A stretch of 64,000 nucleotides of DNA from an uncultured Acidobacteriota bacterium (GTDB lineage Bacteria; Acidobacteriota; Terriglobia; Acidiferrales; UBA7541): positions 72,177-136,176 of the forward strand of contig CAWEST010000005.1 of the NCBI GenBank assembly GCA_963811815.1, written 5' to 3'. Below are positions 214 through 42,471 of the stretch, piece by piece. Every line of letters starts with the position of its first letter. Position 1 is the stretch's first letter. Position numbers and translations under genes: made by a program. The notes beneath the pieces are model-generated. The model saw nothing but the letters and a program-made list of their open reading frames with translations. It did not search any database and was not told the DNA's origin.

Positions 214-3200
214 CTACCGTGGTTCGGGTTGTTGCTGCGGAGCCGGTTGAGGCGGAGTTTGCTGCGGCGGCGCTCCCTGCTCGGGAGGAGCCGGTTGTTG
301 CGGTTGAGACCAAGGCTCGGGAGCTGTAGGAGGCGGTGGCTGGGTTTGGGGCTGAGGCTGTGGCACGCCTGGCACCCGCTCTTGGCGCTCTTGGTGCGTG
401 GGACCCAGCGAGCCCGGACCTTCCGGAGCACCGCGGCCCGCGTAAATTAGATGATCTTTGCGCGGCGCTAGGGCGACCATACGCGGGGTCACCAGAATCA
501 GCACCTCGGTATCTTGTTGTTGTACGTCTTCCGCCGCTCCTAACAACCCCGCGCCAGTTGCGCCTCCAAACGCAGGCGTGCCGTTCAGGCCACGCATATA
601 CTGCGGCGAGCGGAATCCTGCCAAGGCCGCCGTTTGGTCCGTCTTTACGCGCACTGTTTGATGGATCTCTTCGTTCGCCACTACAGGGATGTTGTTGAGA
701 AGTGATCCCGTGAGGCTAGTAATACTGAACTCAAGCTGCAGCGTGACCTCATCGTTTTGATGTATGCGCGGCGTGGCCTTTACCTTGACTCCCACGTCAA
801 TATATTCGGCGTTGGGGAATTGAGTACCGATGGCCGAAGAGCTACCGCTCAGAAATTGCGAAGAATTAAGTATGACCGACACGGTATTCGAGCCGTAGTT
901 GGCGACTGCCAAATCAGGTTGTGAAGTGTCCGTAAATGCAGCGGTGGCCAGTGAAACAGGATTCGTCTCGACGGGGAATTCAAAAAATGGGGTAAAGGTC
1001 CCGTCGCCGAGTCCGATCAGCAGGGATACGGCATTGTCAGTTTGCGCCGTGACGGCCAGGTCGGGAATGCCGTCGATGTTGTAATCGGCGATGGCGATCG
1101 AAGTGGGGCCATTGCCAGCCGGAAAGTTGTTTGTTGCACCAAAGGTGCCATCACCGACACCCAGAAGGATTGAAACGGAGGCGCCGGAAAGCGTGTCCGT
1201 TCCCGGGCCATTATTTGCGACCGCAAGGTCCAGGATGTTGTCGCCGTTGAAGTCGGCTGCCGCCACATAGATCGGCGTTTGCCCGGTCGGATAGCTCAAA
1301 GGCGTATTGAACGTCCCATCCCCATTTCCCAGATAGACGGAGACCGAGTTGTCGGTTTGATTGGTAACCGCCAGATCTAACTTGCCGTCGTTGTTGAAAT
1401 CCGCGACCACAACGCCGGTGGGCCCTTTGCCGGTGGTTAAATTTACAGGGGCCGCGAAAGTTCCGTCTCCGTTGCCCATGAAGACGGAAACCGTGTCGTC
1501 CTGTTGATTCGCAACGAGCAGATCGAATTGTCCGCCCGCAATCAGCGTTGCGGAGACAACGGAGACCGGATGGTTTCCGGTCTTGATAGGAGAACCGGAA
1601 GCGGCCGTGAAGGTGCCGTCGCCGTTACCCAGCAGAATTGTAAGAGTATTGTCAGTTTCGTTGGCTACAGCCAAGCCCACATTCGTGTTGTTCTTAGCGT
1701 TGAAGGTGCCCGTTGCGATGGAAATAGGTCCCTTGCCGGTTGTGGGTTTAAGGGTAGCCGGATTCTGAAAGGTTCCATCGCCATTGCCGAGAAAAATAGA
1801 AAGGTTGTCATCGGTGAAGTTCGAGACGATGAGATCTTGAAAATTATCGCCGTTCAAGTCGGCCGTTGTTACGAAATCCGGGGCATTTCCCGTGGCATAG
1901 TTCGTTACCGGAAAATCAGCAGTGCTCAGGCCCAGTATGCTTGTGCCGCCCGTGGTCGCCCCCGTTCCAAGACTGTTGGAATATTGCGCGAGCGAAACCG
2001 GGAAACGCTCGCCCACGAAGAATGTCGCGGGCTGGTTGTCCTCGGCGCGCAGCAAAATCCGGCGGCCATGGCGCACCAGCGAAAGCATCTCGGAAAAACT
2101 AGCGGCCGCGCCGGGAATGGTGGCCAGAAAAGTTGACGCTCCGCCTCCGAAAGCGACGATTGGCGGAATCAGGCCGCCGACATCCACTTGGCCCGAGGCC
2201 AGCAATGTGGCGAGCTGGGTCGGCGAAAGACCCGCGGTCGCGGCGCTTCCGAATATTTGCGTGAGCACGGTAAGCAGCCCAGGAAGCCCCGATTCCGCCT
2301 CGGTTACGGCGTTTGAGGGAATGGTGTAAACATGGCCACTCTGCGGCGGCAGGATGCCAAGCTGCTCCGCATAATTGCGATCCATTTCAAGGATTTCCAT
2401 TTCCAACACCAGTTCGCCGACCGGTTGATCGAGGTCATCGATTACTCCGCTGGCTACGGCGATCGCTTGGGGAGAGGCGCGCATCGTAAGCGTGCGGCTG
2501 CGGGTGTCCAACTGGCTTCGCGTGATTCCTGCAACTTCCCGGACCAGATGCGAGATTTCCGTCATCTGTTCCGGAGTCTCGGTAGATGAAAACAGGACGG
2601 TGCGCACGATCGAAAGATCGTAATCTTTGCGCTTTTGCGTTGTATCGTCGGCCACGAAAAACAGGTGTTTGGTAAGCGGCCGCCAGAAAGTGTGAGTTTC
2701 TTCGCCCAGGATCCGCGTGACAGTGGCGAAATCCAGGTCATTCGCGTCAATGTGTACCTGCCGCGAGCGTAAGTCCACGTCGAATGCAACGTCCACGCCG
2801 AACTTCCGCGCGATCTCTTCATAAGCGCTTTGCGTGTCGCCTCGCAATCGGAAATTCTGCTTTCCCGGCAAATGCTCGAGGTGCACCTCACGGGGAAGCT
2901 CGGGGCCGGAAAGAACTTGCCTTGCTTGGCGGGGATCCAAAGCGGAGAGTTCAGTCAATCGGTCGCGGATCACCTTGTTGCTGGGATCGAGTTCCCGAGC
3001 CTCGCGCAGTGTATGCAGGGCGGCGGGGATTTCCCCGGAAATTGCGTGCCGCTCCGCCAGATCGACTTTCATCTGAACCACATGGCTCTTGGCTATTTCC
3101 CGGCGCGAAAAATAATCGCTATCGTTAGGCGCGAAGTTAACCGCGTCGGAATAGGCTTCGTAGGCCGCTTCCCAGTCACCCTGCTCTTCTGCGCGGAGGC

Positions 3201-3495
3201 CCTGCTTGTTAGCCTGCTTGGCTTTTTTAAGGTCGGCCTTTACGAGTGGGGATGCGGGAGTACTTGGAGAGTTCGTCCCCGGCGCGGGTGTTGGCTTGCT
3301 GGTTGAATCAGGATTCGTGTCAGATTGCGATTGCTGCGCTGTCGCGGGCTTGGCGCTGTCCGATTGAGACTGAACAACGCCAGGCAGCCTTGCGCCGGCG
3401 GAAGCGGCATGAAAGGCACCCAAGAAAGAAATCGTCAACAGGGCCGGCACGGCGACTAAGATTTTAGGCGATCTTGAACGAAGTGCAGATGGCAT
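214..3495 (-). CDS. Secretin-family outer-membrane protein with N-terminal TPR region, inserted FG-GAP/VCBS repeat propeller and Pro/Gln-rich tail
   Basis: 1093-aa ORF with a signal peptide (KILVAVPALLTISFLGAFHAASAGA) and TPR-like helices. Secretin core motifs are VLEMEILEMDRNYAEQLGI, LLRAEDNQPATFFVGERFPV, YIDVGVKVKATPRI and DTEVLILVTPRMV. Seven D-x-N-x-D...LAVxN / LGNGDGTF repeats lie at aa ~527-878. Confidence 0.85.
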   Translation of the reverse strand: MPSALRSRSPKILVAVPALLTISFLGAFHAASAGARLPGVVQSQSDSAKPATAQQSQSDTNPDSTSKPTPAPGTNSPSTPASPLVKADLKKAKQANKQGLRAEEQGDWEAAYEAYSDAVNFAPNDSDYFSRREIAKSHVVQMKVDLAERHAISGEIPAALHTLREARELDPSNKVIRDRLTELSALDPRQARQVLSGPELPREVHLEHLPGKQNFRLRGDTQSAYEEIARKFGVDVAFDVDLRSRQVHIDANDLDFATVTRILGEETHTFWRPLTKHLFFVADDTTQKRKDYDLSIVRTVLFSSTETPEQMTEISHLVREVAGITRSQLDTRSRTLTMRASPQAIAVASGVIDDLDQPVGELVLEMEILEMDRNYAEQLGILPPQSGHVYTIPSNAVTEAESGLPGLLTVLTQIFGSAATAGLSPTQLATLLASGQVDVGGLIPPIVAFGGGASTFLATIPGAAASFSEMLSLVRHGRRILLRAEDNQPATFFVGERFPVSLAQYSNSLGTGATTGGTSILGLSTADFPVTNYATGNAPDFVTTADLNGDNFQDLIVSNFTDDNLSIFLGNGDGTFQNPATLKPTTGKGPISIATGTFNAKNNTNVGLAVANETDNTLTILLGNGDGTFTAASGSPIKTGNHPVSVVSATLIAGGQFDLLVANQQDDTVSVFMGNGDGTFAAPVNLTTGKGPTGVVVADFNNDGKLDLAVTNQTDNSVSVYLGNGDGTFNTPLSYPTGQTPIYVAAADFNGDNILDLAVANNGPGTDTLSGASVSILLGVGDGTFGATNNFPAGNGPTSIAIADYNIDGIPDLAVTAQTDNAVSLLIGLGDGTFTPFFEFPVETNPVSLATAAFTDTSQPDLAVANYGSNTVSVILNSSQFLSGSSSAIGTQFPNAEYIDVGVKVKATPRIHQNDEVTLQLEFSITSLTGSLLNNIPVVANEEIHQTVRVKTDQTAALAGFRSPQYMRGLNGTPAFGGATGAGLLGAAEDVQQQDTEVLILVTPRMVALAPRKDHLIYAGRGAPEGPGSLGPTHQERQERVPGVPQPQPQTQPPPPTAPEPWSQPQQPAPPEQGAPPQQTPPQPAPQQQPEPR

Positions 3496-29766: not shown

Positions 29767-30762
29767 TCAGCCTTTACGAAATGATTTGGCGGCGGTGACA
29801 CAAGAGCGCAGCTTTTCGACGGCTTCTTCTACCGTGCGCGTTTTTAGGCCGCAGTCCGGGTCCACCCATACGCGCTCTTTCGGGAGAATGGTCAGAGCCT
29901 GCTCGACTCTTTCGCGCACGGCGCCAGCGCTGTCGCTCGTATGCGAGTGCACGTCCACCACTCCGAAACTGATGTCTTTCGTAAACGGATGGCGGCGGAA
30001 AAGTTCGAGCAGGTCGAGGTCGCTATTGGACATTTCCAGATCGAAATTATCTACGGCCAGATCAAGCATGCCGGGATAAATATGTTCGAACTCGCCATAG
30101 CAAGCGTGGGTGATGAAGTAGGCGTCCTGGCCCTGGGTGGTGAATTCCATGGCTTCGATGGCTATGGGCAATTCTTCGGGGCGCACGGAAAGCGCAGGCT
30201 CGTCGATTTGGATGATTTTGCAGCCCGCAGCGATTAACGTTTCCACTTCCTGGCGAATCACTTTCGCCAGTGCAAAGGCGGCGGCGCGGCGGTCAGGGTA
30301 AAACTCGTTGAAGCTCCAGTCCATGATGGTGTAGGCGCCGGTAAGCATGCCCTTGACCGGCTTCTTGGTGAGGCTTTGAGCGTATTTCCACCAGTCAACC
30401 GTCACCGGGCCGCGCCATCCAACTTCGCCAGTAATTACCGGCTTGTGATAGTAGCGATTCCCATAGCTGCGAACCAAACCGCTGGTTGCAAATCCCGGCA
30501 GCCGCTCGGCGAAGTAAGCGACCATGTCCCCGCGGTACATTTCGCCGTCCACGAGCACGTCCAGTCCGAGTTTTTCCTGCTGCTCGATCCAGAAAGCGGT
30601 GGCCTTGCGCTCCAGATCGTGAAGATCTTTTTCCGGAATTTGGCCCTTTGTGAATTCTGAGCGAGCCTTAACCAGATAATCGGGCTTAGGGAAGCTGCCG
30701 ACCGAAGTGGTCGGGAAGAGCGGCAACTTCAAGCCGAGCTTTTCCAATTTTTCACGGCTCAT
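29767..30762 (-). CDS. Cobalamin-independent methionine-synthase catalytic (MetE C-terminal-like) domain protein
   Basis: 331 aa. Zn-site pattern THACYGEF ... LEMSNSD ... VDPDCGLKTR. Also TTSVGSFPKP and IIQIDEPAL. Confidence 0.85.
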   Translation of the reverse strand: MSREKLEKLGLKLPLFPTTSVGSFPKPDYLVKARSEFTKGQIPEKDLHDLERKATAFWIEQQEKLGLDVLVDGEMYRGDMVAYFAERLPGFATSGLVRSYGNRYYHKPVITGEVGWRGPVTVDWWKYAQSLTKKPVKGMLTGAYTIMDWSFNEFYPDRRAAAFALAKVIRQEVETLIAAGCKIIQIDEPALSVRPEELPIAIEAMEFTTQGQDAYFITHACYGEFEHIYPGMLDLAVDNFDLEMSNSDLDLLELFRRHPFTKDISFGVVDVHSHTSDSAGAVRERVEQALTILPKERVWVDPDCGLKTRTVEEAVEKLRSCVTAAKSFRKG

Positions 30763-31832
30763 GGGCGGCCGCCTTTTAGCTCGGAGCGAACTTTTGAGAG
30801 TAATTCAAGCTTGGCGAAGGCGCGATCGCGCGGAAGATATTCGAGACCGGATGAAGTTCCAAGAAAAGCGCGTTCGCCTTTTATTTTTGGCAGCATGCGT
30901 TCAATCTGGCGCGCGATTTGCGCGGGATCTTCCAGCCGCGTGTTGCGGCCGTCCACAAGTCCGAGTCCGAGCGCTTTCGGAGAGCCTCTTGCGGCAATCA
31001 TATCCACGAGTTTTGGGTAGTAAGTAAAATCCAGACCGACGATGTCCACCGGCAGCGAGACCAGCTTTTCGTAAAATGGCGCGCAATCGTGGAAGTAAAC
31101 GTAGAGAGCCAGCTCGAGTTTGCGTCCGCTCTTCGTAAAAGTGTCGCGCGCTTTAACGAGCGGGGGGAGCGAAGCCTCGAAAATCGCCCAGTCATTCGGG
31201 TACTTGATCGCGGCGGGCTCGTCGACCTGAATTAACTCGGCGCCCAATTGCGCTAGCGTCTCGATCTCGGTAGCAAGAATTTCGGAGTAGGCCTGGGCGC
31301 GGTCTTCGAGAGCGGCGAACCGCCCCGACGAGCCATTTCCGTGCTGTTCGCCAAGCGAAAATTTTGCGAGGGTATACGGGCCAGTCAGCACAGGCTTAAC
31401 GCTGAGCTTTCCCGCTTTCCCCGAAGGAGTTGGCAAATGGCCAAGGGCGTTTCGCGCGAAGCTGTAATCACCGGCGGCAAGATGTCCGCGTTTGAGCGGC
31501 GTTCCGGTGAAGATGGGCTGGCGAAAATAGGTGTTGGTGTCGAAGAAGCGAACGAGCCCTTTGATTTGGATGTTATCGAGTTTGCCGGCCAGGTGAGAGA
31601 TGGGATCGTACCAGCGAATCAGCCCGTCGGTGACGACGTCAAGGCCGGCCCTCACTTGTTCGGCGATGACGAAGCGGGTCACGTCGTTCTGAACGTCGAG
31701 AAGATCGGCGGTGGAGCGGTCACCACGGTCGAGCGCGGCAATGGTTCGCCGCAGGAGCTGCAATTCCGGGGGATCGCCGATGCGCGGATAGCTTCCCGTG
31801 CTGGAAAGGAAGAGGCCCGGAGTGGCGCTCAT
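30759..31832 (-). CDS. MetE N-terminal-like (Meth_synt_1-type) domain protein lacking the Zn site
   Basis: 357 aa. STGSYPRIG, VVTDGLIRWYDP, LIQVDEPAA and VDGRNTRLE, with no His/Cys Zn ligands. ATGA overlap with the downstream catalytic-domain gene. Confidence 0.75.
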   Translation of the reverse strand: MSATPGLFLSSTGSYPRIGDPPELQLLRRTIAALDRGDRSTADLLDVQNDVTRFVIAEQVRAGLDVVTDGLIRWYDPISHLAGKLDNIQIKGLVRFFDTNTYFRQPIFTGTPLKRGHLAAGDYSFARNALGHLPTPSGKAGKLSVKPVLTGPYTLAKFSLGEQHGNGSSGRFAALEDRAQAYSEILATEIETLAQLGAELIQVDEPAAIKYPNDWAIFEASLPPLVKARDTFTKSGRKLELALYVYFHDCAPFYEKLVSLPVDIVGLDFTYYPKLVDMIAARGSPKALGLGLVDGRNTRLEDPAQIARQIERMLPKIKGERAFLGTSSGLEYLPRDRAFAKLELLSKVRSELKGGRP

Positions 31833-32728: not shown

Positions 32729-33715
32729 TTAGATACCGGTTCCGACGTAGCCGTTTTCGGCGGTTCGGAGGCCCATGTTTGGCATTTCTGTTTTCACTTT
32801 TACCGGCTCAAGACTCGGCTTATTTGCGCTCTTGGCAAGAAACGTAAGCTCGTATTGGTGCTTCAGGTTGTAGCTTACATCCTGCAAGTAGGGAGTGAAA
32901 TCAACCGAAGCGCCGAGACCGAGGTAGTAGGTCTCGCCACCGGTCTTTTGAGCGAGCAGATCCAGGCCAGTCTGCGCCAGATTGGTGCGGAAAGCACCAC
33001 GGCCGGCAAGGCCAGCTCCGGGCGTATAAATTGAATAGACGATAAAGCCTCCCCGTTGCGCGCGATTCAAAGCCTCGTCGAGGTAGGGATTCGTGTATGG
33101 ATCGTTTGAAAATCCGCCGCCGAGAGGATCAATTCCGTTGGTGAACATCAAGATTTCGCGGCGGTCTTGAGTCTGCGGCCATTTCTTCATAAGGTCCGAC
33201 AGCGCCAAGTACGGGCTGGTGTATCCCGCCGAAGCGCCGATGGGCAAGCGCAACGCTTTTTGTGCCAAGGCGTGGTCCGTGGTCAACTCTTGGGCCGTGG
33301 TGACCATGCCGTTGTGCATATAACCCACGGCGATGGCTGTGCTAGCGGGCTGTTCGTCGATAAATTTCGCGATGCTGCTGAACTGCAAGCTGAGGCTGTC
33401 TCTGGAATTGTCGTCGATCAAAATGAAAAGCTGCAATCCGGCACGGTCTCCCTGCAGCGGGATCCAGCTGGTGACGGCATCCTGCTTTTCGCGCTGATAC
33501 ACTTTCACGTCAGCTTCTGCGACCACTGGCACTTCTGCGCCGCGGTGCGGCTTCACCGTCACGACCATTTTGACTGGGACGTCGGTCGAAGTGTTGGGCT
33601 TGTGCGGTGCGGCCAGTGTCGGTCCGGAGATCATGCCGAGAGCGAGACCAAACATCGCTCCCAAGGCTAAAGAGTGCTTCGTTATCGAGTTTTTCCCCAT
33701 CTTTAAGTTTTGCAT
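32729..33715 (-). CDS. Secreted VWA-like domain protein (acidobacterial VWFA-related type)
   Basis: Signal peptide (ITKHSLALGAMFGLALGMISGPTLAA) and LQLFILIDDNSRDS MIDAS-like start. ATG at 33715; the ORF track start at 33874 adds a non-protein-like leader. Confidence 0.65.
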   Translation of the reverse strand: MQNLKMGKNSITKHSLALGAMFGLALGMISGPTLAAPHKPNTSTDVPVKMVVTVKPHRGAEVPVVAEADVKVYQREKQDAVTSWIPLQGDRAGLQLFILIDDNSRDSLSLQFSSIAKFIDEQPASTAIAVGYMHNGMVTTAQELTTDHALAQKALRLPIGASAGYTSPYLALSDLMKKWPQTQDRREILMFTNGIDPLGGGFSNDPYTNPYLDEALNRAQRGGFIVYSIYTPGAGLAGRGAFRTNLAQTGLDLLAQKTGGETYYLGLGASVDFTPYLQDVSYNLKHQYELTFLAKSANKPSLEPVKVKTEMPNMGLRTAENGYVGTGI

Positions 33716-33946
33716 CGTCTCATCCCTTCTCTCGGAATCCGAGAGTTTCAACTGCTGATGGCGCCGCTCTTGCAGGGGCCTATAGTCGCGAGCCGAAGAA
33801 CAGCATTTCGGCCCTAGGGATAAGATGCGCTGACGGCAGGTTTGGGGTACTTGCAGATTCGTCTCTAACTGCAAGATTATAAGAAACTTGGAAAAAGGGC
33901 AGTTGGGCGAATGCTCTCGCTCGTGTTAATCCGTGCTGGATTACCG

Positions 33947-35470
33947 CTATGGCGCGATTTCTCTTGGATAGACGCTAATGGCGGTAGGGTCAATCTCGAA
34001 GCGCAGGAGCCAGTCGCTTGGCACGTTACGGCCGTCGATTTTCGCGGGGGCAAATTTCCAAAGTTGCGCGGCTTTCAGGGTGCGGTCGGCGAAATACGTG
34101 CTGGGGCCCGGGGAATCGAACGACGCTTCCGTTACGTCGCCTGATTCGTTTACGTGAACTTTGACGCTGACTCGAACCTTTCCGTGAATCGTGTCTCTGG
34201 CTTTCTGCGGCGCGTCGGGCAGGATTTGCTGAAGTACTTTGCCACGGACGATGCCGCTGGCGGATGTTGTGGCGGGCGCAGCGGATTGAACTGGGATTGG
34301 TGATGGAGCAGGATTGCCCGCAGCCGGTTTTTTCTCTCGTGGGAGAACTGGCCGCGGTGCAGTCTGCTGCGCGGGCTTCGCAGCGGGCGAAGCCGATTTG
34401 GCGGACAGCACTGGTTTGTTTTCTGATTTTGGCTGAACTTTTGCAGGAACCGAGGACTGAACTCTTGACTGCACCGGCGGCTGAGCTTGCGCCGGAACTT
34501 TTGGCTGCGGCGCCGACGGCTGGACTGCGACCGGAGCGGGGGGTGGACTTTGAGAGTGGCGGGCGGAAGATCGCGAGCGTGCGATGATCGCTACGAGCAG
34601 AAGGACAGCCAGCACCACCGCGGCGATGGTGCGCGGGTTTACAAGCGAAGTTTCCGGACCCGGAGTGATCTGCCTCGGCTGCGCGGGCGAATTCTGCTGT
34701 AGGCGCGCGGCGATGTCCGCAACGGTCCAGCGCAATTGCGGGTCACGGCGCAAACAGTGGCGCGCCAAATCGAGAACCTCCGGCGGGAGGTTTGACGGCA
34801 GCGCCGGCTCGGCTTGATTCGTTCTCTCCCACACGGGCAAGCGCTGAGTCAAAGCTTCGGCCAAGGTCATGCCCAGCGACCAAACGTCGCCCGCGGGAGA
34901 AATTCTTCCTCCGGCTGCTTCGGGAGGATCGTAGGCGCCGGGTTTTCCCAAGCTGCCACTGTATTCGCCGATGCGGCAAAGTCCGTCGCTCGAAATTTTC
35001 AGGAGGTCGTCATCGGCCATGATGTTGGCGGGTTTCAAGCGGCAATGAACGAAGCCCTTGGAGTGAACGTAGGCGAGGGCGTCGGCCACGGGGCCGAGAA
35101 TGTCGCGTGCTTCCGCAGGAGAGAGCGGCCTGCGCGCAACTACTTGCGAGAGGTTTTCTTCGGCGTATTCCATGACCACGTAGAGCATCGGCGTGTGATC
35201 CAACTCGCAGCGGCCCGTTTGCAGGAGGCGGATCAAGTGGGGATGAGAAAGTCTTGCGGCTTGTTTCCAGCGGGCGAGTTGGGCCGGGGCATCAACTGAA
35301 TCGGCCGGGATCAGCTTGATTGCGGCTTTGGGGACTTCCTGCCCGTCGTAATCAACCAGAAATACGGAGCTGCGTTCATTTCCGCCGACGAATTGGCCAA
35401 GGCGGAATTTCCCGTCAACGACTTGGCCCATCTGTTTTGTCGCGGCCTCGGTCATGTAATCCCCCTGCAT
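33947..35470 (-). CDS. Ser/Thr-kinase-like (predicted pseudokinase) / TM / Pro-rich spacer / TonB C-terminal domain fusion protein
   Basis: The kinase fold has AAIKLI, HCRLKPAN (HRD Asp replaced by Arg), KISSDG (DFG degenerate), PPE and DVWSLG. TM is IAAVVLAVLLLVAIIA, followed by a ~100-aa P/Q/A-rich spacer. TonB_C-like end: IHGKVRVSVKVHVNESGDVTEASF...AAQLWKFAPA. Alternative ATG at 35455. Confidence 0.8.
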   Translation of the reverse strand: MQGDYMTEAATKQMGQVVDGKFRLGQFVGGNERSSVFLVDYDGQEVPKAAIKLIPADSVDAPAQLARWKQAARLSHPHLIRLLQTGRCELDHTPMLYVVMEYAEENLSQVVARRPLSPAEARDILGPVADALAYVHSKGFVHCRLKPANIMADDDLLKISSDGLCRIGEYSGSLGKPGAYDPPEAAGGRISPAGDVWSLGMTLAEALTQRLPVWERTNQAEPALPSNLPPEVLDLARHCLRRDPQLRWTVADIAARLQQNSPAQPRQITPGPETSLVNPRTIAAVVLAVLLLVAIIARSRSSARHSQSPPPAPVAVQPSAPQPKVPAQAQPPVQSRVQSSVPAKVQPKSENKPVLSAKSASPAAKPAQQTAPRPVLPREKKPAAGNPAPSPIPVQSAAPATTSASGIVRGKVLQQILPDAPQKARDTIHGKVRVSVKVHVNESGDVTEASFDSPGPSTYFADRTLKAAQLWKFAPAKIDGRNVPSDWLLRFEIDPTAISVYPREIAP

Positions 35471-35887: not shown

Positions 35888-36642
35888 ATGGAGATTACTT
35901 CTGGCAACCGATTGGGAACTTTCGAAGTGTTTTTGCCGGTCCGCTCCGCTGAGCGGGAGGCTCAGCCGCGCGGCGATGATGGATTTCCCGGACGACTATT
36001 TATCGTTGAAGGCATCGACGGGTCGGGAAAATCCACGCAACTGAGCTTGCTGCACAAATGGCTCGAATCGAAAGGCTACGGGGTGGTGTTCAGCGAGTGG
36101 AATTCCTCTCCGCTGGTGAAAAACACGACGAAGTTCGGGAAGAAAAAAAGATGCTGACGGCGGCGACGTTTTCGCTGATTCACGCCACCGATTTCGCCGA
36201 CCGGACGGAGAAGAGCATTCTGCCGCTGTTGAAAGCGGGCGCGGTGGTGCTGTGCGATCGCTACATCTACACGGCGTTCGCGCGAGACGTGGCACGCGGA
36301 ATGGACCGCGAGTGGGTTCGCGAGCTTTATGGGTTTGCGGTGAAGCCCGCGGTGGCGTTCTACTTCCGAGTGCCGCTGGAGACCGCCATCGGACGGCTGA
36401 TGGATGGCCGCGATGAACTCAAGTATTACGAAGCAGGGATGGACCTGGACCTGAGCGATGACCCCGAGGAAAGCTTTCGGCTCTTTCAAGGCTTGATACT
36501 GAAGGAATACGAAAAAATGATTTCCGAATTCGGATTGACGGTCATTGACGCCACTTTGCCAATCGAAGTGCAGCAAACGCAAGTGAGACAAATCGTAAAA
36601 ACGCAACTCGAGAAAGCGGTGAACGTGAGGGTGCAACGATGA
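35888..36642 (+). pseudogene. Thymidylate-kinase-like P-loop protein interrupted by a frameshift at an A7 run (a -1 shift restores a 251-aa product)
   Basis: ORF 35888-36157 carries FIVEGIDGSGKSTQ and ends ...FGKKKRC*. ORF 36058-36642, in the -1 frame, continues ...KKMLTAATFSLIHATDFADR...CDRYIYTAFA. The A7 run is at 36143-36149. Confidence 0.75.
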
Positions 36643-37502
36643 GGCAGACATATGGAAAGCTTCTCCCGGGGATGCGAATTTCCGATCTGACGGGCAAGCT
36701 GATCGTGATTGAAGGGACCGATGGCGTTGGGCGCACGACGCAGATCGATCTGTTGAAACCGTGGCTCGAAGAGCTGGGACATGCGGTGCTGGATACGGGC
36801 ATGGCGCGTTCGACGCTGGCTGGAGAAGGACTCCGGCGCGCGAAGGAAGGAAATAACCTGGGACGCGTGACACAAAGCCTTTTTTACGCGACGGATTTTA
36901 TCGATCGTTTGGAGAACGAGATCGTTCCGGCGCTGCGGTCCGGGTTCATCGTGCTGACCGACCGGTACGTTTATTCGCTGATGGCCAGGGCGTTCGTTCG
37001 CGGCATGGACTCGAAATGGATTCGCAGCATTTACAGCGTGGCGTTAAAACCAGATGCGACATTCTATTTGCGGTTGAGCATCGACCAGCTGATTCCGCGC
37101 GTTGTTTTCTCACGGGGATTCGATTATTGGGAGTCCGGGATGGATCTGTATCCGGGGCGGGATATGTACGACTGCTTTTGCAATTATCAGACTGCATTGA
37201 TGGGGGAGTTCGACCGGCTTAGCGAAGAATATAAGTTTGATGTGATTGAGGCATCGGCGGATGCCGAGCAGGTTTTCGAGCACCTCAAGGCAGGAATATT
37301 CCGCGCTCTGGAAAGTGATTCCCGAAAAGAATACATTTCCGCGCGCAGCACGAAGACATTGTCTATTTCCGATTTGAGCGCGAATGAAAGGATCGCACCT
37401 GCGGCACACACCACTCATTCAGCTAAGTTCGAGTCGGTGCTGCGATCTATCATGGCGCACTCTGCGGACGGCAACGGCAGAACGGCCCAGCACCAGAAAT
37501 AG
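36639..37502 (+). CDS. Thymidylate-kinase-like paralog with degenerate P-loop (GVGRTT) and ~70-aa C-terminal extension
   Basis: LIVIEGTDGVGRTTQIDLL, FYATDFIDR and LTDRYVYSLMA. ATGA overlap with the upstream paralog. Confidence 0.8.
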   Translation: MRQTYGKLLPGMRISDLTGKLIVIEGTDGVGRTTQIDLLKPWLEELGHAVLDTGMARSTLAGEGLRRAKEGNNLGRVTQSLFYATDFIDRLENEIVPALRSGFIVLTDRYVYSLMARAFVRGMDSKWIRSIYSVALKPDATFYLRLSIDQLIPRVVFSRGFDYWESGMDLYPGRDMYDCFCNYQTALMGEFDRLSEEYKFDVIEASADAEQVFEHLKAGIFRALESDSRKEYISARSTKTLSISDLSANERIAPAAHTTHSAKFESVLRSIMAHSADGNGRTAQHQK

Positions 37503-37523: not shown

Positions 37524-39548
37524 CTAGCGAGAAGAATCTGTGAACCGGAGGGACTGCATGGTATGGACGAGTTCATCGAGCTTTGACACATCGGTGCTTG
37601 AGAAAACGAAGAGAAGCAAATAGTCTTTCTCCATCGTGACGGCCTCGACCACGTGGCTAGTCGCGCCCTTGATCGTGGGATTCAAGTTTAACTTCCAAAA
37701 GGTTTTTCCAGCAACAGTGAATTGCTCCGGCGGGCCGACAACTGAGATCGCCATACCCCTGTTTGTCAAAATCGCGGCCATTGATTTCAAAAAGTCTTCG
37801 CCCGATTTCAAATCAGGTTCGAGTACTCGCTTGTCCATAGCTTGGATGAGAATCGAACTCACATTGGTTGATATGTCCTTCGTCGTCTGCCTGGTGACAA
37901 ACAAGAGTTGGTACGCATTTCTAGCAGCTGCTTCTGCTATGTCCGGCATTGTGGGATCGCCGTTCGCCAATATTGATGAGCCAAGTCTAGCTGCCGCTTC
38001 GCCTGCGCCAGCCTTCAAAACAATCCAGTTCTTGGGAAACTCGTAGGAGAAGCCGAAAAAGGTGTTTGTATAGATGTTGTCAGAAAAGAAGCCGTCGTCC
38101 GGCTGCGGTCCGACGGGTTTCGTGGCTGCGTTCGCGGTTTCTTTTGAACCGGCGGGATCAACAACTACGGAATACAGCGGGTTACTCGGCTCGATGCGCG
38201 CGGCCTCCCGGAATTCAGCAAGAGCCTCGTCTCGTTTGCCCTTGTCCCGCAAAGCTACGCCCAAAAAGTAGTGAGCTTGGGCGTCATTTGGACTCGTCTT
38301 CAAGAACAGATTCAGTTCCTCAATGGCCGCATCGGAATCGCCCGCGTGAACGAGTGAAAGGCCAAGAAGCTTGTGGATCATTGGTAGTTCCGGCGCGAGG
38401 GGGATCGCCTCTTCCAGAACAGGGATGGCGTCTTTGAATTGCCCACTTCGCGCCAGGCTGATGCCAAGTTCGGCAAGCGCGAGCTTATGACTTGGAAAGA
38501 TTCGCAGCGCTTCGCGAGCCTCAAGCGTGGCTTCACTGTCGCGCTTCTGAAGACTCAACGCCATTGCCACTGTGACATGCGCTTCTGCGTCTTCGGGCCA
38601 GAGTTTCAGAGACTCTCGGGCCTGAGCCTCGGCTCCGGGGTAGTTCCGGACAAGAAGAAGATTCCTTGCATATGCAAGATGAAGTGTTGCTGAATCGGGC
38701 GCAAGTTGGAGCGCACGCACAAAATTCTCGTTGGCCGATGCGGGTTGTTTGTTGCGTTTGTCAGTAAGCGCTGCGTCGAGGAGTCCATAGGCCTTGACCC
38801 GGTCAGGCGACGGTTGCTTAACAGCCAGAGGCTTGAGAGTAGTGAGCGCCTCAACGAGATTGGGAGGCGCCTCATACAATCGAAGTGAAGCGAGAAAAGC
38901 GGAGTCAGGAGTGAAATCGATGCCGCGCTGGCAGATCGGTTGGGCTTCGTATAGGGTGCGATTTTGACCTGCGAGAAAAGCAAGCAGTTCGAGACGGTCA
39001 AACGGGGGCGCCAGAGGCGTGCCAGCCTCGGCGGCGCTGCAGTCGGTCAGTGGTGGCAGCGGTGGCTGCGGTGGCTGGAGGTTATAATAGAAGGTGCAAC
39101 GTAGTCTAATGGAGGGCCCCTTAAAGGCCGCTGGAAGTGGGGCCTGCGGGTAAAAGTAACGGATAGCATTCATGGCTGCTTGATCGAGTGAATCGTTCCC
39201 AGAGCTTGTCTCGAGAAAGACGCGAGCAATGCTGCCATCCTGGTTGATATCGAATTGAATAACGGCCTGACCCTTTTCCCCTTTATAGAACGCTTCCGGC
39301 AGCGAGGCAGACCAGTTCCTCATCACCCGAGCGTGTAACAGATTCATGTAAGGACCGAAATTTACTCCCTCAGTTGGAGTTAGGATTTGCATCCCACTTG
39401 GGGGAGAACCCAAAGGATGAACGGTGACGCTCGGCGTAGTGCCCTGAACGGGTTCCTGAGCGCGGCTCACTGACTGAATTAGGAACATCGCGAGGGCCAC
39501 GATCACGAACGTTTTGAAAGCGAATCCGGGCCGACGCGGTTGTCTCAT
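37524..39548 (-). CDS. Secreted TonB-C-terminal-like domain / TPR repeat / C-terminal unknown (possibly PsbP/DcrB-like) domain protein
   Basis: Signal peptide, then TonB_C-like GQAVIQFDINQDGSIARVFLETSSGNDSLDQAAMNAI. Multiple TPR units span aa ~250-470. The final ~200 aa (FGFSYEFPKNWIV...) are not recognised. Confidence 0.75.
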   Translation of the reverse strand: MRQPRRPGFAFKTFVIVALAMFLIQSVSRAQEPVQGTTPSVTVHPLGSPPSGMQILTPTEGVNFGPYMNLLHARVMRNWSASLPEAFYKGEKGQAVIQFDINQDGSIARVFLETSSGNDSLDQAAMNAIRYFYPQAPLPAAFKGPSIRLRCTFYYNLQPPQPPLPPLTDCSAAEAGTPLAPPFDRLELLAFLAGQNRTLYEAQPICQRGIDFTPDSAFLASLRLYEAPPNLVEALTTLKPLAVKQPSPDRVKAYGLLDAALTDKRNKQPASANENFVRALQLAPDSATLHLAYARNLLLVRNYPGAEAQARESLKLWPEDAEAHVTVAMALSLQKRDSEATLEAREALRIFPSHKLALAELGISLARSGQFKDAIPVLEEAIPLAPELPMIHKLLGLSLVHAGDSDAAIEELNLFLKTSPNDAQAHYFLGVALRDKGKRDEALAEFREAARIEPSNPLYSVVVDPAGSKETANAATKPVGPQPDDGFFSDNIYTNTFFGFSYEFPKNWIVLKAGAGEAAARLGSSILANGDPTMPDIAEAAARNAYQLLFVTRQTTKDISTNVSSILIQAMDKRVLEPDLKSGEDFLKSMAAILTNRGMAISVVGPPEQFTVAGKTFWKLNLNPTIKGATSHVVEAVTMEKDYLLLFVFSSTDVSKLDELVHTMQSLRFTDSSR

Positions 39549-39768: not shown

Positions 39769-42471
39769 GTGACGGACTCCTCCTCTTTCATCGGCCGCAC
39801 AATTTCCCACTATCGCATCGTCGAAAAGCTGGGCGGGGGCGGGATGGGCGTGGTCTATAAGGCGGAGGACACGCGGCTGCATCGCGCAGTCAGTTTGAAA
39901 TTCCTGCCCGGCGAGATGTCCCACGACCTGGGCGCTCTTGAACGGTTCCGGCGGGAGGCGCAGGCGGCATCGGCGTTAAATCATCCGAACATCTGCACGA
40001 TTTACGACATCGGCGAGCAAGACGGCCAGCAATTCATTGCCATGGAGTTTCTGGAAGGCGAGACGCTGAAACAACGGATCTCCGGCAAGCCGCTGCCTCT
40101 GGAACAAGTGGTGGAGCTGGGAATTGAAATCGCGGAGGCGCTGGATGCGGCGCACGCCAAAGGAATCGTGCACCGCGACATCAAGCCTGCGAACATTTTC
40201 GTCACCGCGCGCGGGCATGCCAAGATTCTGGATTTCGGTCTAGCCAAGCAGAGTTCCGGCGACGAACGTCCCGGCGTTTCCGCGCTGCCGACTGCAACTG
40301 CAGAAGAATTCCTGACAAGCCCGGGCACAGCACTGGGCACAGTGGCTTATATGTCGCCAGAACAAGTGCGAGGCGAGCAACTGGATTCGCGCACGGATCT
40401 TTTCTCGTTCGGCGTGGTGTTATACGAGATGGCCACGGGCGTTCTGCCATTTCGCGGAGAAACTTCCGGCGTCATTTTCGACGCCATCCTAAATCGCGAG
40501 CCGGTCACAGCCGTGCGGCTGAATCCCGATCTGCCGACGAAGCTGGAAGAAATTATCGATCGGGCGATGGAGAAAGACCGCAATCTGCGCTACCAGCACG
40601 CGTCGGACGTGCGAGCAGAATTACAGAGGCTGAAACGCGACAGCACGTCGGGCCGCTCGCATGTGTCATTTGCAGGAAAAGCGGAACAAGTAACAGCAGA
40701 ATCACAGGCTGTAGCTTCGGGCGCGACACGGAGTGGTGCGAGGCGAAAAGGCTACTATTACGCCGCGGCGGCAATTCTTGTGCTGGCGGCAGCGGCTGGA
40801 GCATTCTTCCTGTATCGATCGTCGCGGAGTAGCCCTCCTGCGAGCAAGGACTGGGAGCAGCTTACTTTTTTCACGGACTCCGCCGTGTACCCGGCACTCT
40901 CGCCGGATGGACGGATGCTCGCGTTCATACGCGGAAGCAATTCATTTTTCGGCCCCGGACAAGTTTGCGTCAAGTTTCTGCCCGACGGCCAGCCCGTGGA
41001 ACTCACGCATGACGCCTCGCAGAAATTAAATCCAGTCTTCTCCGCTGACAATTCGCTCATCGCCTATGGAGTGGCCATACCTTTCAGCGTGTGGGAAGTG
41101 CCGGTTCTCGGCGGCGAGCCGCATATGATGTTCCCCAACGCGACCTCTTTGACCTGGATCGACGATGGAAAGCGGCTGCTTTTTTCTGAGATCAAAGAAG
41201 GATTGCACATGGTGCTGGTGACCACCGACCAAGGCCGAGGGCAGCGGCGGGAAGTTTACGCACCTCCCGGCGAGCGCAGCATGATCCATCATTCCTATCT
41301 TTCCCCTGACGGGCGATGGGTGCTGGTGGTGGAGATGGGCGATCGTGGCGACTTTCTCCCTTGCAGTGTTGTTCCTTTTCAGGGAACGGGCGATGCGCGT
41401 GTCGTGGGTCCTCCCGACGGTTCCTGCACTTCGGGCGCGTGGTCGCCTGACGGCAAATGGGTGTACCTCACGGTGACGAAAGGGGACAAGTCCCACATCT
41501 GGCGGCAACGATTTCCGAGCGGAGAGCCTGAGCAGGTGACTCCTGGCCCGACTACCCAGGAGGGAATTGCAATGTCCGCGGACGGCAAATCGCTCATTAC
41601 CTCGGTCGGCACGGAGGACAGCACGGTGTGGCTGCACGACAAGGACGGCGACCATCAGATTTCCTCGGAAGGGAATGCGCACGGAGCGTCCTTCTCGTCT
41701 GATGGAAAAGAACTCTATTACCTGATGGCCAACGGCAAAGCCTCGGATTATGAGCTCTGGGTCAAGGATTTGAGCGATGGCAAGACGGAGAGGTTCCTAC
41801 CGGGGTATTCCATGGCAGACTACTCAGTTTCTGCTGATGGAAAAGAAGTCGCGTTCGAAATGGACGACCAGAACGGACGGTCCAGTCTGTGGGTTGCTCC
41901 AACCAGTCGCCGCTCTTCCCCAGTTCGGATATCTTCCAGCGCGGTCGAAGATTCCGCCGTTTTCCTCCCCGATGGGGACCTGGTTTTTCGAGTGGTCGAA
42001 AATGGATCGAATTTTTTGTACCGCATGAAAGCTGATGGAACCGGGCGCCACAAGGTAATCCCCGGACGTATATTCGATCTTGGTGCAGGGTCGCCGGACG
42101 GTCGTTGGATCGTTGCTACTTCGCCGGGCCCGGATCAGGAGTACACGGCTCAATTTAGTGCGATTGCAACGGATGGAAGCAAGATCGTACCGCTCTGCCT
42201 GGGCTATTGCGACGCAATCTGGGATGTCACTGGAAAATTCATGTACGTTGACTTCCCCTCTTTGCGCGACGGTACCTTCCCGCTGCCCCTGGTGCACGAC
42301 TCGGGCCTTCCGATGTTGCCCCCTGGTGGAATCGCGAGAATCGAGGACTTCACCAATGCAAAAGCTGCAGCCGTGATTCCCCGGGTCGTGGATTCTGCCA
42401 TCAGCCCATCCGATTACGCCTACAGCGTCAAGAATACCCGCCGCAACTTGTATCGCATCCCGTTGCCGTAG
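39769..42471 (+). CDS. Ser/Thr protein kinase with TM segment and C-terminal TolB-like (PD40/WD40-like) beta-propeller region
   Basis: Canonical motifs [33 protein letters not shown] and YMSPEQ. TM is [35 protein letters not shown] repeats occur in the C-terminal 500 aa. GTG start. Confidence 0.9.

Follow-up and report, generated by a model that had tools for sequence, protein, structure and literature searches.

A large Acidobacteriota protein family joining a predicted cytoplasmic pseudokinase to a periplasmic TonB_C domain

The gene described here lies on the minus strand of a 64-kb stretch of DNA (contig CAWEST010000005.1 of assembly GCA_963811815.1, positions 72,177 to 136,176; 64,000 nucleotides, referred to as the window) from an uncultured bacterium of the phylum Acidobacteriota. 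Its product is a bitopic inner-membrane protein whose N-terminus is cytoplasmic and whose C-terminus is periplasmic; in it a pseudokinase of the Hanks fold is followed by one transmembrane segment (TM), a flexible spacer and a periplasmic TonB_C domain. The protein belongs to a large family that combines these two known modules in a manner undescribed in the literature that we searched. The best explanation, in which our confidence is about even, is that the protein would serve as a receptor or scaffold that spans the envelope and does not phosphorylate. The first-pass annotation of the window had proposed a TonB-like arm coupled to a pseudokinase and acting as a signalling device, and taken as a whole this interpretation is partly supported: its structural part stands and its functional part is plausible.

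The maximal open reading frame (ORF) occupies 33947..35470 of the minus strand, with its stop codon at 33947-33949, and encodes 507 amino acids (aa), by which residues are numbered here. The real coding sequence is probably 33947-35455, of 502 aa, starting with the ATG at 35455 (Met6), because a Shine-Dalgarno-like site lies just upstream and Met6 is kept across the family (Met at this position in 118 of 120 aligned sequences). The public gene call is likewise 502 aa long. A promoter and terminator scan around the gene found nothing. The features of the gene are as follows.

35460-35466, minus strand: AGGGGGA, a Shine-Dalgarno-like site 4 nt before the start codon, read from the sequence
34697..35428, minus strand: cytoplasmic Hanks-fold pseudokinase domain, residues 15-258, from Pfam Pkinase, the PknB sequence and fold match and the AlphaFold2 (AF2) model
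35369..35386, minus strand: degenerate Gly-rich loop GGNERS, residues 29-34, from the PknB alignment (family consensus GGS[DE][HR]S)
35315..35317, minus strand: beta3 (VAIK) Lys52, kept, from the homologue alignment
35024..35047, minus strand: catalytic loop HCRLKPAN, residues 142-149, with Arg144 at the catalytic Asp site and Lys146 and Asn149 kept
34982..34990, minus strand: SDG in place of DFG, residues 161-163, with Ser161 at the metal-binding Asp site and Asp162 at the Phe site
34580..34630, minus strand: single TM helix TIAAVVLAVLLLVAIIA, residues 281-297, from a hydropathy scan and the AF2 helix at 279-299
34256..34579, minus strand: periplasmic Pro/Ala/Ser/Gln spacer, residues 298-405 (108 aa), from composition and predicted disorder
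33950..34255, minus strand: C-terminal TonB_C domain, residues 406-507, from Pfam, NCBIfam and PDB profile matches

That the N-terminal part has the Hanks kinase fold, as had been suggested from its motifs, is borne out by a Pfam Pkinase (PF00069) match over residues 47-254 (E=3.9e-27, 95.7 bits against a cut-off of 31.7) and by PknB of Mycobacterium tuberculosis, which is the best match in the PDB for the pseudokinase domain both by sequence and, for the predicted structure searched with Foldseek, by fold (catalytic domain, TM-score 0.77, root-mean-square deviation 3.6 A, 26% identity). PknB served as the reference for the active site and was aligned to the single sequence and to a 146-sequence family profile, with equivalences that agree. 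All the motifs quoted in the first-pass annotation are in place, namely AAIKLI (49-54), HCRLKPAN (142-149), KISSDGL (158-164), DVWSLG (195-200), the terminal Arg (Arg247) and the TM. Across the catalytic loop and the DFG region the alignment to PknB has no gaps and is anchored on both sides; it puts Cys143-Arg144 on the Arg-Asp of HRD, so that the catalytic Asp is replaced by Arg144, and sets K-I-S-S-D-G-L-C-R against K-V-M-D-F-G-I-A-R of PknB, so that Ser161 stands at the metal-binding Asp and Asp162 at the Phe. Both substitutions had been read correctly at first pass, with the nuance that the residue next to Ser161, Asp162, is nearly invariant. The degeneracy claimed for the Gly loop and the alphaC Glu was also found: the GxGxxG pattern gives way to GGNERS, and a deletion of four residues falls where PknB has its alphaC Glu (Glu59). 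The activation segment is about seven residues shorter than that of PknB. What is kept comprises the beta3 Lys52, Lys146 and Asn149 of the catalytic loop, Glu184 of the APE motif and its partner Arg247, together with Val36, Ala50 and Met151, which align with the positions that sandwich adenine in PknB, a role that we take from general kinase knowledge. Judged by alignment, the HRD Asp, the DFG Asp, the Gly loop and the alphaC Glu of a catalytically competent Hanks kinase are missing, and the beta3 Lys is present. A reading of the protein as part of a defence system was rejected, the NCBIfam antiphage MAD6 match reflecting only generic kinase similarity (74 bits against a cut-off of 460).

The family was surveyed at two depths. 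Among the 120 nearest proteins in a collection of 5.8 billion, which are 62-88% identical to the query over their full length, Pkinase is found in all 120 and a precomputed TonB_C (PF03544) assignment in 110, and the altered residues are close to fixed (Cys143 in 115, Arg144 in 117, Ser161 in 118, Asp162 in 119, and Gly163 and Lys52 in all). When 1.84 billion cluster representatives (50% identity) were scanned exhaustively with HMMER, 1,048 clusters matched at E<=1e-30, the best 150 of which all have E<1e-91 and identities of 39-70%. The same C-terminal domain, ending at the C-terminus, is present in 147 of these 150 representatives, and exactly one hydrophobic segment was seen in 146 of the 152 sequences scanned for it. 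At the level of species, a genome scan found 272 relatives, nearly all in the Acidobacteriota class Terriglobia (Acidiferrales, Terriglobales, Bryobacteraceae); a few come from bins with odd labels, which are possibly mis-binned. Metagenome-assembled genomes of the genera Terracidiphilus and Alloacidobacterium contain the gene. Public annotation knows the family under the names 'TonB family protein', 'protein kinase' and 'eukaryotic-like serine/threonine-protein kinase'. Two copies lie on different contigs of bin MFD09286.bin.1.244 (L076, L078), so that some genomes carry paralogues. Three gene calls of 95-100 aa (P0283, P0302, P0303), on long contigs of 116-597 kb, consist of the TonB_C domain only; they could be copies that a frameshift or a wrong gene call has divided within the low-complexity spacer, or else TonB_C proteins in their own right.

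Motif counts over the best 150 representatives and the query (151 sequences) show that the loss is a property of the family. The catalytic Asp of HRD is absent in 146 and kept in five, and even in these five, which have 'HGD', DFG is missing. Most frequent at the HRD triplet are HGH (57) and HGR (36), followed by HSR, HTR and others, and the position of the catalytic Asp itself varies among H, R, S, G, Q, T, A and C. The DFG triplet takes the form x-D-x with its central Asp conserved (SDG 51, SDS 18, SDT 11, and others). The beta3 Lys is retained in 143 of the 151 and the catalytic-loop Asn in nearly all. Nearly invariant in the kinase-fold domain are K52, W68, H142, P147, N149, K158, S160, D162, Y180, P183, E184, D195, W197, G200 and R247; Val36 is nearly invariant too, as are Ala50 and Met151 among close homologues. 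Nucleotide or metal binding by the kinase fold, including a shifted metal ligand at Asp162, is conceivable because Asp162, the beta3 Lys and the catalytic-loop Asn are nearly invariant.

Other bacterial pseudokinases offer a measure of how far this active site has decayed. EssB/YukC of the type VIIb secretion system and the pseudokinase domain of MviN/MurJ (ActPs3) are, like the present domain, degraded Hanks folds attached to the membrane that work as scaffold or regulator; the MviN domain does not bind ATP and has its pocket filled by aromatic residues, and all three catalytic motifs of EssB are degraded (PMC12599244). Their motifs are thus more fully degraded than those of the present family, which keeps the beta3 Lys, the Asn, the adjacent Asp and small residues in the adenine pocket, and they have other extracytoplasmic parts and belong to other phyla (Firmicutes, Actinobacteria). 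A 2025 atlas of approximately 300,000 bacterial serine/threonine kinases defines seven pseudokinase families, ActPs1-3, GLW, CP1, DYD and DLHK, in which the VAIK-Lys is substituted in all members of five families, in 34% of CP1 and in 60% of DYD, and whose associated domains are PAS, PQQ, COG3899, helicase and others (bioRxiv 10.1101/2025.01.12.632604). All share with our family a family-wide substitution of the catalytic triad in a PF00069-related domain; the retained Lys (143 of 151) and TonB_C as the associated domain set our family apart by published description only. Judged by these descriptions, the pseudokinase-TonB_C family is outside the seven published ones. Neither TonB nor Acidobacteria is mentioned in the main text of the atlas (bioRxiv 10.1101/2025.01.12.632604) or in the companion review (PMC12599244), and our full-text literature search turned up no account of TonB_C joined to a kinase or pseudokinase.

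The retained residues also suggest an unconventional enzyme, which would hold ATP through Lys52, Asn149 and Asp162 and carry out weak phosphotransfer or AMPylation-type chemistry under periplasmic control, as the kinase fold of SelO reportedly does with the latter chemistry. The near invariance of these residues and of Val36, and of Ala50 and Met151 in close homologues, fits such an enzyme, as does the contrast with the seven published families, each with VAIK-Lys substitution, and with the aromatic-filled pocket of MviN. However, the position of the catalytic Asp is free to vary across the family, Asp162 occupies the DFG-Phe (regulatory spine) position in a gap-free alignment, the Gly loop is degenerate and the segment with the alphaC Glu of PknB is deleted. 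We therefore consider enzymatic activity rather improbable.

A decaying kinase gene, or an ORF produced by chance or by chimeric assembly, would offer a trivial explanation, and a probable homopolymer frameshift is indeed present at least once in the window, in a neighbouring thymidylate-kinase-like gene. Yet hundreds of independent assemblies hold intact full-length orthologues of 40-88% identity in which the motifs are fixed, and both domains are clearly under constraint, so that this explanation is refuted and we give it practically no weight. Because the architecture and the degenerate motifs recur in hundreds of independent sequences, their combination is, on alignment evidence, far beyond chance. 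The distribution of conservation along the protein was measured as identity to the query in 140 distant representatives: 51% in the kinase-fold domain (gaps 1%) and 49% in the TonB_C domain (gaps 1%), against 13% in the juxtamembrane stretch (gaps 15%), 24% in the TM (gaps 4%) and 21% in the spacer (gaps 46%). Strong purifying selection on both globular domains, and not on the TM or the spacer, is evident in these alignments; since conservation is confined to the two ends, the kinase-fold and TonB_C ends would be the functional modules and the middle a tether.

The C-terminal half agrees with the first-pass description of one TM, about 100 aa rich in P/Q/A/V, and a TonB_C-like end. The spacer, whose 108 aa at residues 298-405 suffice to span the periplasm, is composed of P 22%, A 19%, S 16%, Q 10% and V 9%, and its length ranges from 29 to 139 aa across the family with a median of 77; the members with the shortest spacers may lack reach to the outer membrane. 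The TonB_C domain scores above both thresholds, with a Pfam TonB_C (PF03544) match at residues 425-487 (29.9 bits against a cut-off of 24.6) and an NCBIfam tonB_Cterm (TIGR01352) match (29.9 bits against 27.1). A family profile of the domain matches TonB C-terminal structures only in the PDB (E 4.7e-7 to 2e-5), first TonB2 of Vibrio anguillarum (2K9K, 4.7e-7), then 6I97 and 6FIP of Pseudomonas aeruginosa, and further 2GSK, 1U07, 1XX3, 2GRX and 1IHR of Escherichia coli. The two outcomes by which the initial reading might have fallen, a catalytic Asp restored by alignment and a failing TonB_C match, did not arise. A search with the C-terminal domain alone returned 41 short fragments only, of 58-166 aa, and was uninformative on other N-terminal partners.

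The predicted structure has the same layout. An AF2 model built on the 146-sequence alignment, which includes distant representatives, reached a predicted local distance difference test (pLDDT) score of 83.4; a shallower alignment, of 50 sequences at >=66% identity, had given a poor model (mean pLDDT 51.8, C-lobe 30-45), which was discarded. Block-mean pLDDT is 90-98 in the kinase domain except for one block at 81 (residues 171-180), a helix at 279-299 matches the TM, the chain is disordered at approximately 301-405 (block means of 47-58 between residues 301 and 400), and from residue 411 a C-terminal alpha/beta domain follows with block means of 94-98.

Within this TonB-like frame the details depart from canonical TonB. 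The topology, the Pro-rich spacer and the C-terminal fold are those of the TonB proteins of E. coli, P. aeruginosa and V. anguillarum. TonB proteins generally have no cytoplasmic domain (PMC8262864), whereas approximately 280 cytoplasmic residues precede the TM here, the SxxxH (SHLS) motif of ExbB/ExbD coupling is absent from the query TM and present in only three of 146 family sequences, and no exbBD gene is linked. No polar signature is conserved in the TM, which is Ala/Gly-rich. The 'YP' motif, which the TonBs of Bacteroides conserve completely (PMC10350073), corresponds in our family to (L/M/V/I)-P and in the query to Leu417-Pro418: Pro418 is found in 146 of 146 sequences, an aliphatic residue (L, M, V or I) precedes it in 132 of 146, and the five most frequent residues at that preceding position do not include Tyr. 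Conversely, the last beta strand, which has no conserved residue in Bacteroides TonBs (PMC10350073), is strongly conserved here, reading SDWLLRFEI in the query and S-[ED]-W-[ILV]-L-[RH]-F-x-F in the family, and P418, G430, G444, W471, F473, W487 and F491 are nearly invariant in the domain. Because the last strand and Pro418 are so highly conserved, the alignment gives a hint of a single conserved partner, as opposed to many transporters.

The nearest architectural precedent is found in GltJ/GltG of the Agl-Glt gliding machinery of Myxococcus xanthus, whose layout is alike: GltJ (AgmX) consists of a cytosolic regulatory domain, a single TM, a flexible periplasmic region and a C-terminal TonB-C domain, and has been proposed to link cytoplasm and envelope (PMC11135422). 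Its cytosolic part, however, is a ZnR-GYF switch that binds MglA and AglZ in place of a kinase fold, and it is encoded in a gliding cluster and thought to use the AglRQS motor, whereas no conserved cluster or motor genes lie near the gene described here. By analogy with what is proposed for GltJ, the present protein could be a motor-coupled TonB paralogue, in which the TM engages a stator of the ExbBD/TolQR type, the TonB_C domain pulls on outer-membrane proteins and the pseudokinase regulates the force. The TonB-like topology, the Pro-rich spacer and the bona fide TonB_C domain are in keeping with this proposal, and so is a weak match to the NCBIfam model gliding_GltJ (NF033761; E=0.0036), which falls on the low-complexity spacer only and scores 16.5 bits against a cut-off of 450. 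A TM that is only 24% identical among distant members and the rarity of SxxxH argue against it, as do the missing motor genes: exbB, exbD, tolQ and tolR were found neither among the commonest neighbour families nor among the scanned ORFs of the window, although single or unlinked copies are possible, and no gliding-gene cluster was found near the pseudokinase gene. Motor coupling of this kind appears unlikely to us, and a classical ExbBD-energised TonB is unlikely as well.

The genomic context was analysed at the 80 best loci. There the arrangement of the window, with a divergent pair of thymidylate-kinase-like (Tmk-like) genes upstream and also a MetE-like pair, MetH and an active kinase with PD40 repeats, recurs in approximately 15-17 close relatives only. 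The first-pass annotation had suggested surveying the spread of the fusion and its conserved neighbours; the fusion proved to be family-wide (1,048 clusters), and conserved neighbours failed to appear, with no cluster of the 1,177 neighbouring ORFs present in more than 19 of the 80 loci. The genes on either side vary from lineage to lineage and in many cases lie on the opposite strand, and the commonest immediate neighbours are mutually unrelated (a short-chain dehydrogenase, a PIN protein, a HEAT-repeat protein, a response regulator, a glutamine synthetase, RNase II and FdhE). Among the 134 distinct neighbour clusters within two genes the top Pfam family is Response_reg, in 4 of the 134; ExbB, ExbD, Plug and TonB_dep_Rec are not among the recurrent Pfam families of these clusters, and genes for extracytoplasmic function (ECF) sigma factors or transducer-type receptors do not recur in them either. 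The scanned ORFs of the window likewise include no gene for a TonB-dependent transporter. The gene behaves as a stand-alone unit, and its context gives no functional lead, because no neighbour is conserved across the family. The active kinase at 39769-42471 was considered as a dedicated partner and set aside, its linkage being confined to the closest relatives.

The same stand-alone position, without conserved signalling neighbours, would suit a passive envelope tether, in which TonB_C anchors to peptidoglycan or to an outer-membrane protein and the cytoplasmic domain merely localises the protein, with no flow of signal; structural TonB-like proteins do exist, for example SjdR of Anabaena (PMC8262864). 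SjdR, however, has no TonB-like periplasmic domain at all, and conservation at about 50% identity over a cytoplasmic domain of approximately 250 aa, together with an unvarying set of active-site-like residues, exceeds the needs of a localisation tag. The chance that the protein is only a tether is slim in our view.

We return to the receptor or scaffold proposed at the outset. The spacer would let the TonB_C domain reach the peptidoglycan or outer-membrane layer, where the domain would dock to a conserved partner in the envelope, probably through beta-strand addition in the manner of TonB and the TonB box. Occupancy or clustering would be relayed through the loosely constrained TM, probably as a change of oligomeric state, and the pseudokinase would act by binding on a cytoplasmic partner, for instance an active Hanks kinase, of which these genomes have many; this binding is possibly nucleotide-gated, given Lys52, Asn149, Asp162 and the adenine-pocket residues. 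A signalling device rather than an energy transducer, as first suggested, is consistent with the unconserved TM, the unlinked exbB and exbD and the conserved globular domains. The M56/BlaR1-like peptidase-TonB_C proteins of Bacteroides and Xanthomonas, functionally uncharacterized as of 2023 (PMC10350073), likewise add TonB_C to a putative signal-transduction module, although that module is a polytopic peptidase, in contrast to the cytoplasmic pseudokinase and single TM found here. In the FecA-FecR-FecI system, according to the general description in PMC2729926, a cytoplasmic regulator learns of the occupancy of an outer-membrane receptor by way of a bitopic inner-membrane protein; this is a functional analogy only and not homology, since FecR has another periplasmic domain and an anti-sigma N-terminus.

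Several points weigh against the receptor or scaffold. Gene context revealed no partner on either side of the membrane, no TonB-box partner and no conserved operon. The retained Lys52, Asn149, Asp162 and adenine pocket would also fit an unconventional enzyme. The missing SxxxH does not prove that motor coupling is missing, tonB genes are often unlinked to exbBD, and GltJ, itself a TonB-C protein, is thought to work with a TolQR-like motor. Finally, TonB-box binding by the TonB_C domain is a putative property, and the Tyr of 'YP' is replaced here by an aliphatic residue in 132 of 146 sequences. A bolder extension, on balance doubtful, is a hitherto unrecognised surface-signalling route in Acidobacteriota in which the TonB_C domain would read one conserved outer-membrane or peptidoglycan partner and the kinase fold, with its Lys52, Asn149, Asp162 and open adenine pocket, would be a nucleotide-gated switch or a non-canonical transferase controlling Ser/Thr-kinase signalling, in effect a pseudokinase counterpart of the FecR/ECF-sigma pathway.

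The surroundings of the gene hold further observations. The second kinase of the window (39769-42471, plus strand) is a canonical Hanks kinase followed by a hydrophobic TM-like stretch, seen by eye, and PD40/WD40-like beta-propeller repeats; as had been noted for contrast with the pseudokinase, it has all canonical motifs, including SPE. Another protein, encoded at 37524-39548 on the minus strand (674 aa), has a signal-peptide-like hydrophobic N-terminus, by eye, a TonB_C/TonB_2 match at residues 66-154 (tonB_Cterm 50.7 bits), TPR repeats at approximately 240-460 and then a C-terminal stretch of about 200 aa without assignment, and is thus a second, different non-TonB use of the TonB_C fold, 2 kb from the pseudokinase gene; a protein at the same position was found only in locus L003 (89%) and weakly in L047.

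The thymidylate-kinase-like pair is divergent to the pseudokinase gene in approximately 16 close relatives. Its first gene (35888-36642, plus strand) is split into two overlapping frames, a P-loop part at 35888-36157 and the remainder at 36058-36642, and the second paralogue (36639-37502, plus strand, 287 aa) starts in overlap with the stop of the first. At an A-run around 36143-36149 the window reads AAGAAAAAAAGATG, and 15 relatives are one base longer, with 15-nt variants that are mostly AAGAAAAAGAAGATG; relatives with a called thymidylate-kinase-like ORF have a single ORF of approximately 250-350 aa. The split at the A-run is probably a homopolymer sequencing error or a real frameshift.

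Directly downstream of the pseudokinase gene, the ORF at 32729-33874 (minus strand) gives a sub-threshold match to TIGR03436, an Acidobacteria-specific VWA-domain model (53.5 bits against 81.25), and this VWA-like gene adjoins the pseudokinase gene in only 3 of the 80 loci. Farther away, 214-3495 (minus strand) encodes 1,093 aa with weak TPR, FG-GAP repeats (E=2e-42) and a C-terminal Secretin domain (E=8e-20), an unusual secretin fusion. Rfam and tRNA scans of the whole 64-kb window returned no family at the gathering score and no tRNA gene, and a riboswitch, which might have been expected upstream of the MetE-like pair at 29767-31832, was not found there by the Rfam scan.

Terriglobia are among the most abundant soil bacteria, and Acidobacteriota carry many Hanks kinases and TonB-dependent receptors; to our knowledge, almost none of their signalling has been studied experimentally. 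If the protein neither phosphorylates nor transduces energy, the labels 'TonB family protein' and 'protein kinase' under which the family is deposited are misleading, and should it be a structural tether only, the value of the present analysis would lie mainly in a corrected annotation. The family widens the catalogue of bacterial pseudokinases by one that, unlike the seven published families, keeps the beta3 Lys and that has a periplasmic domain hitherto unconnected with proteins of the kinase fold, and it provides a concrete candidate for the coupling of outer-membrane events to Ser/Thr-kinase networks.

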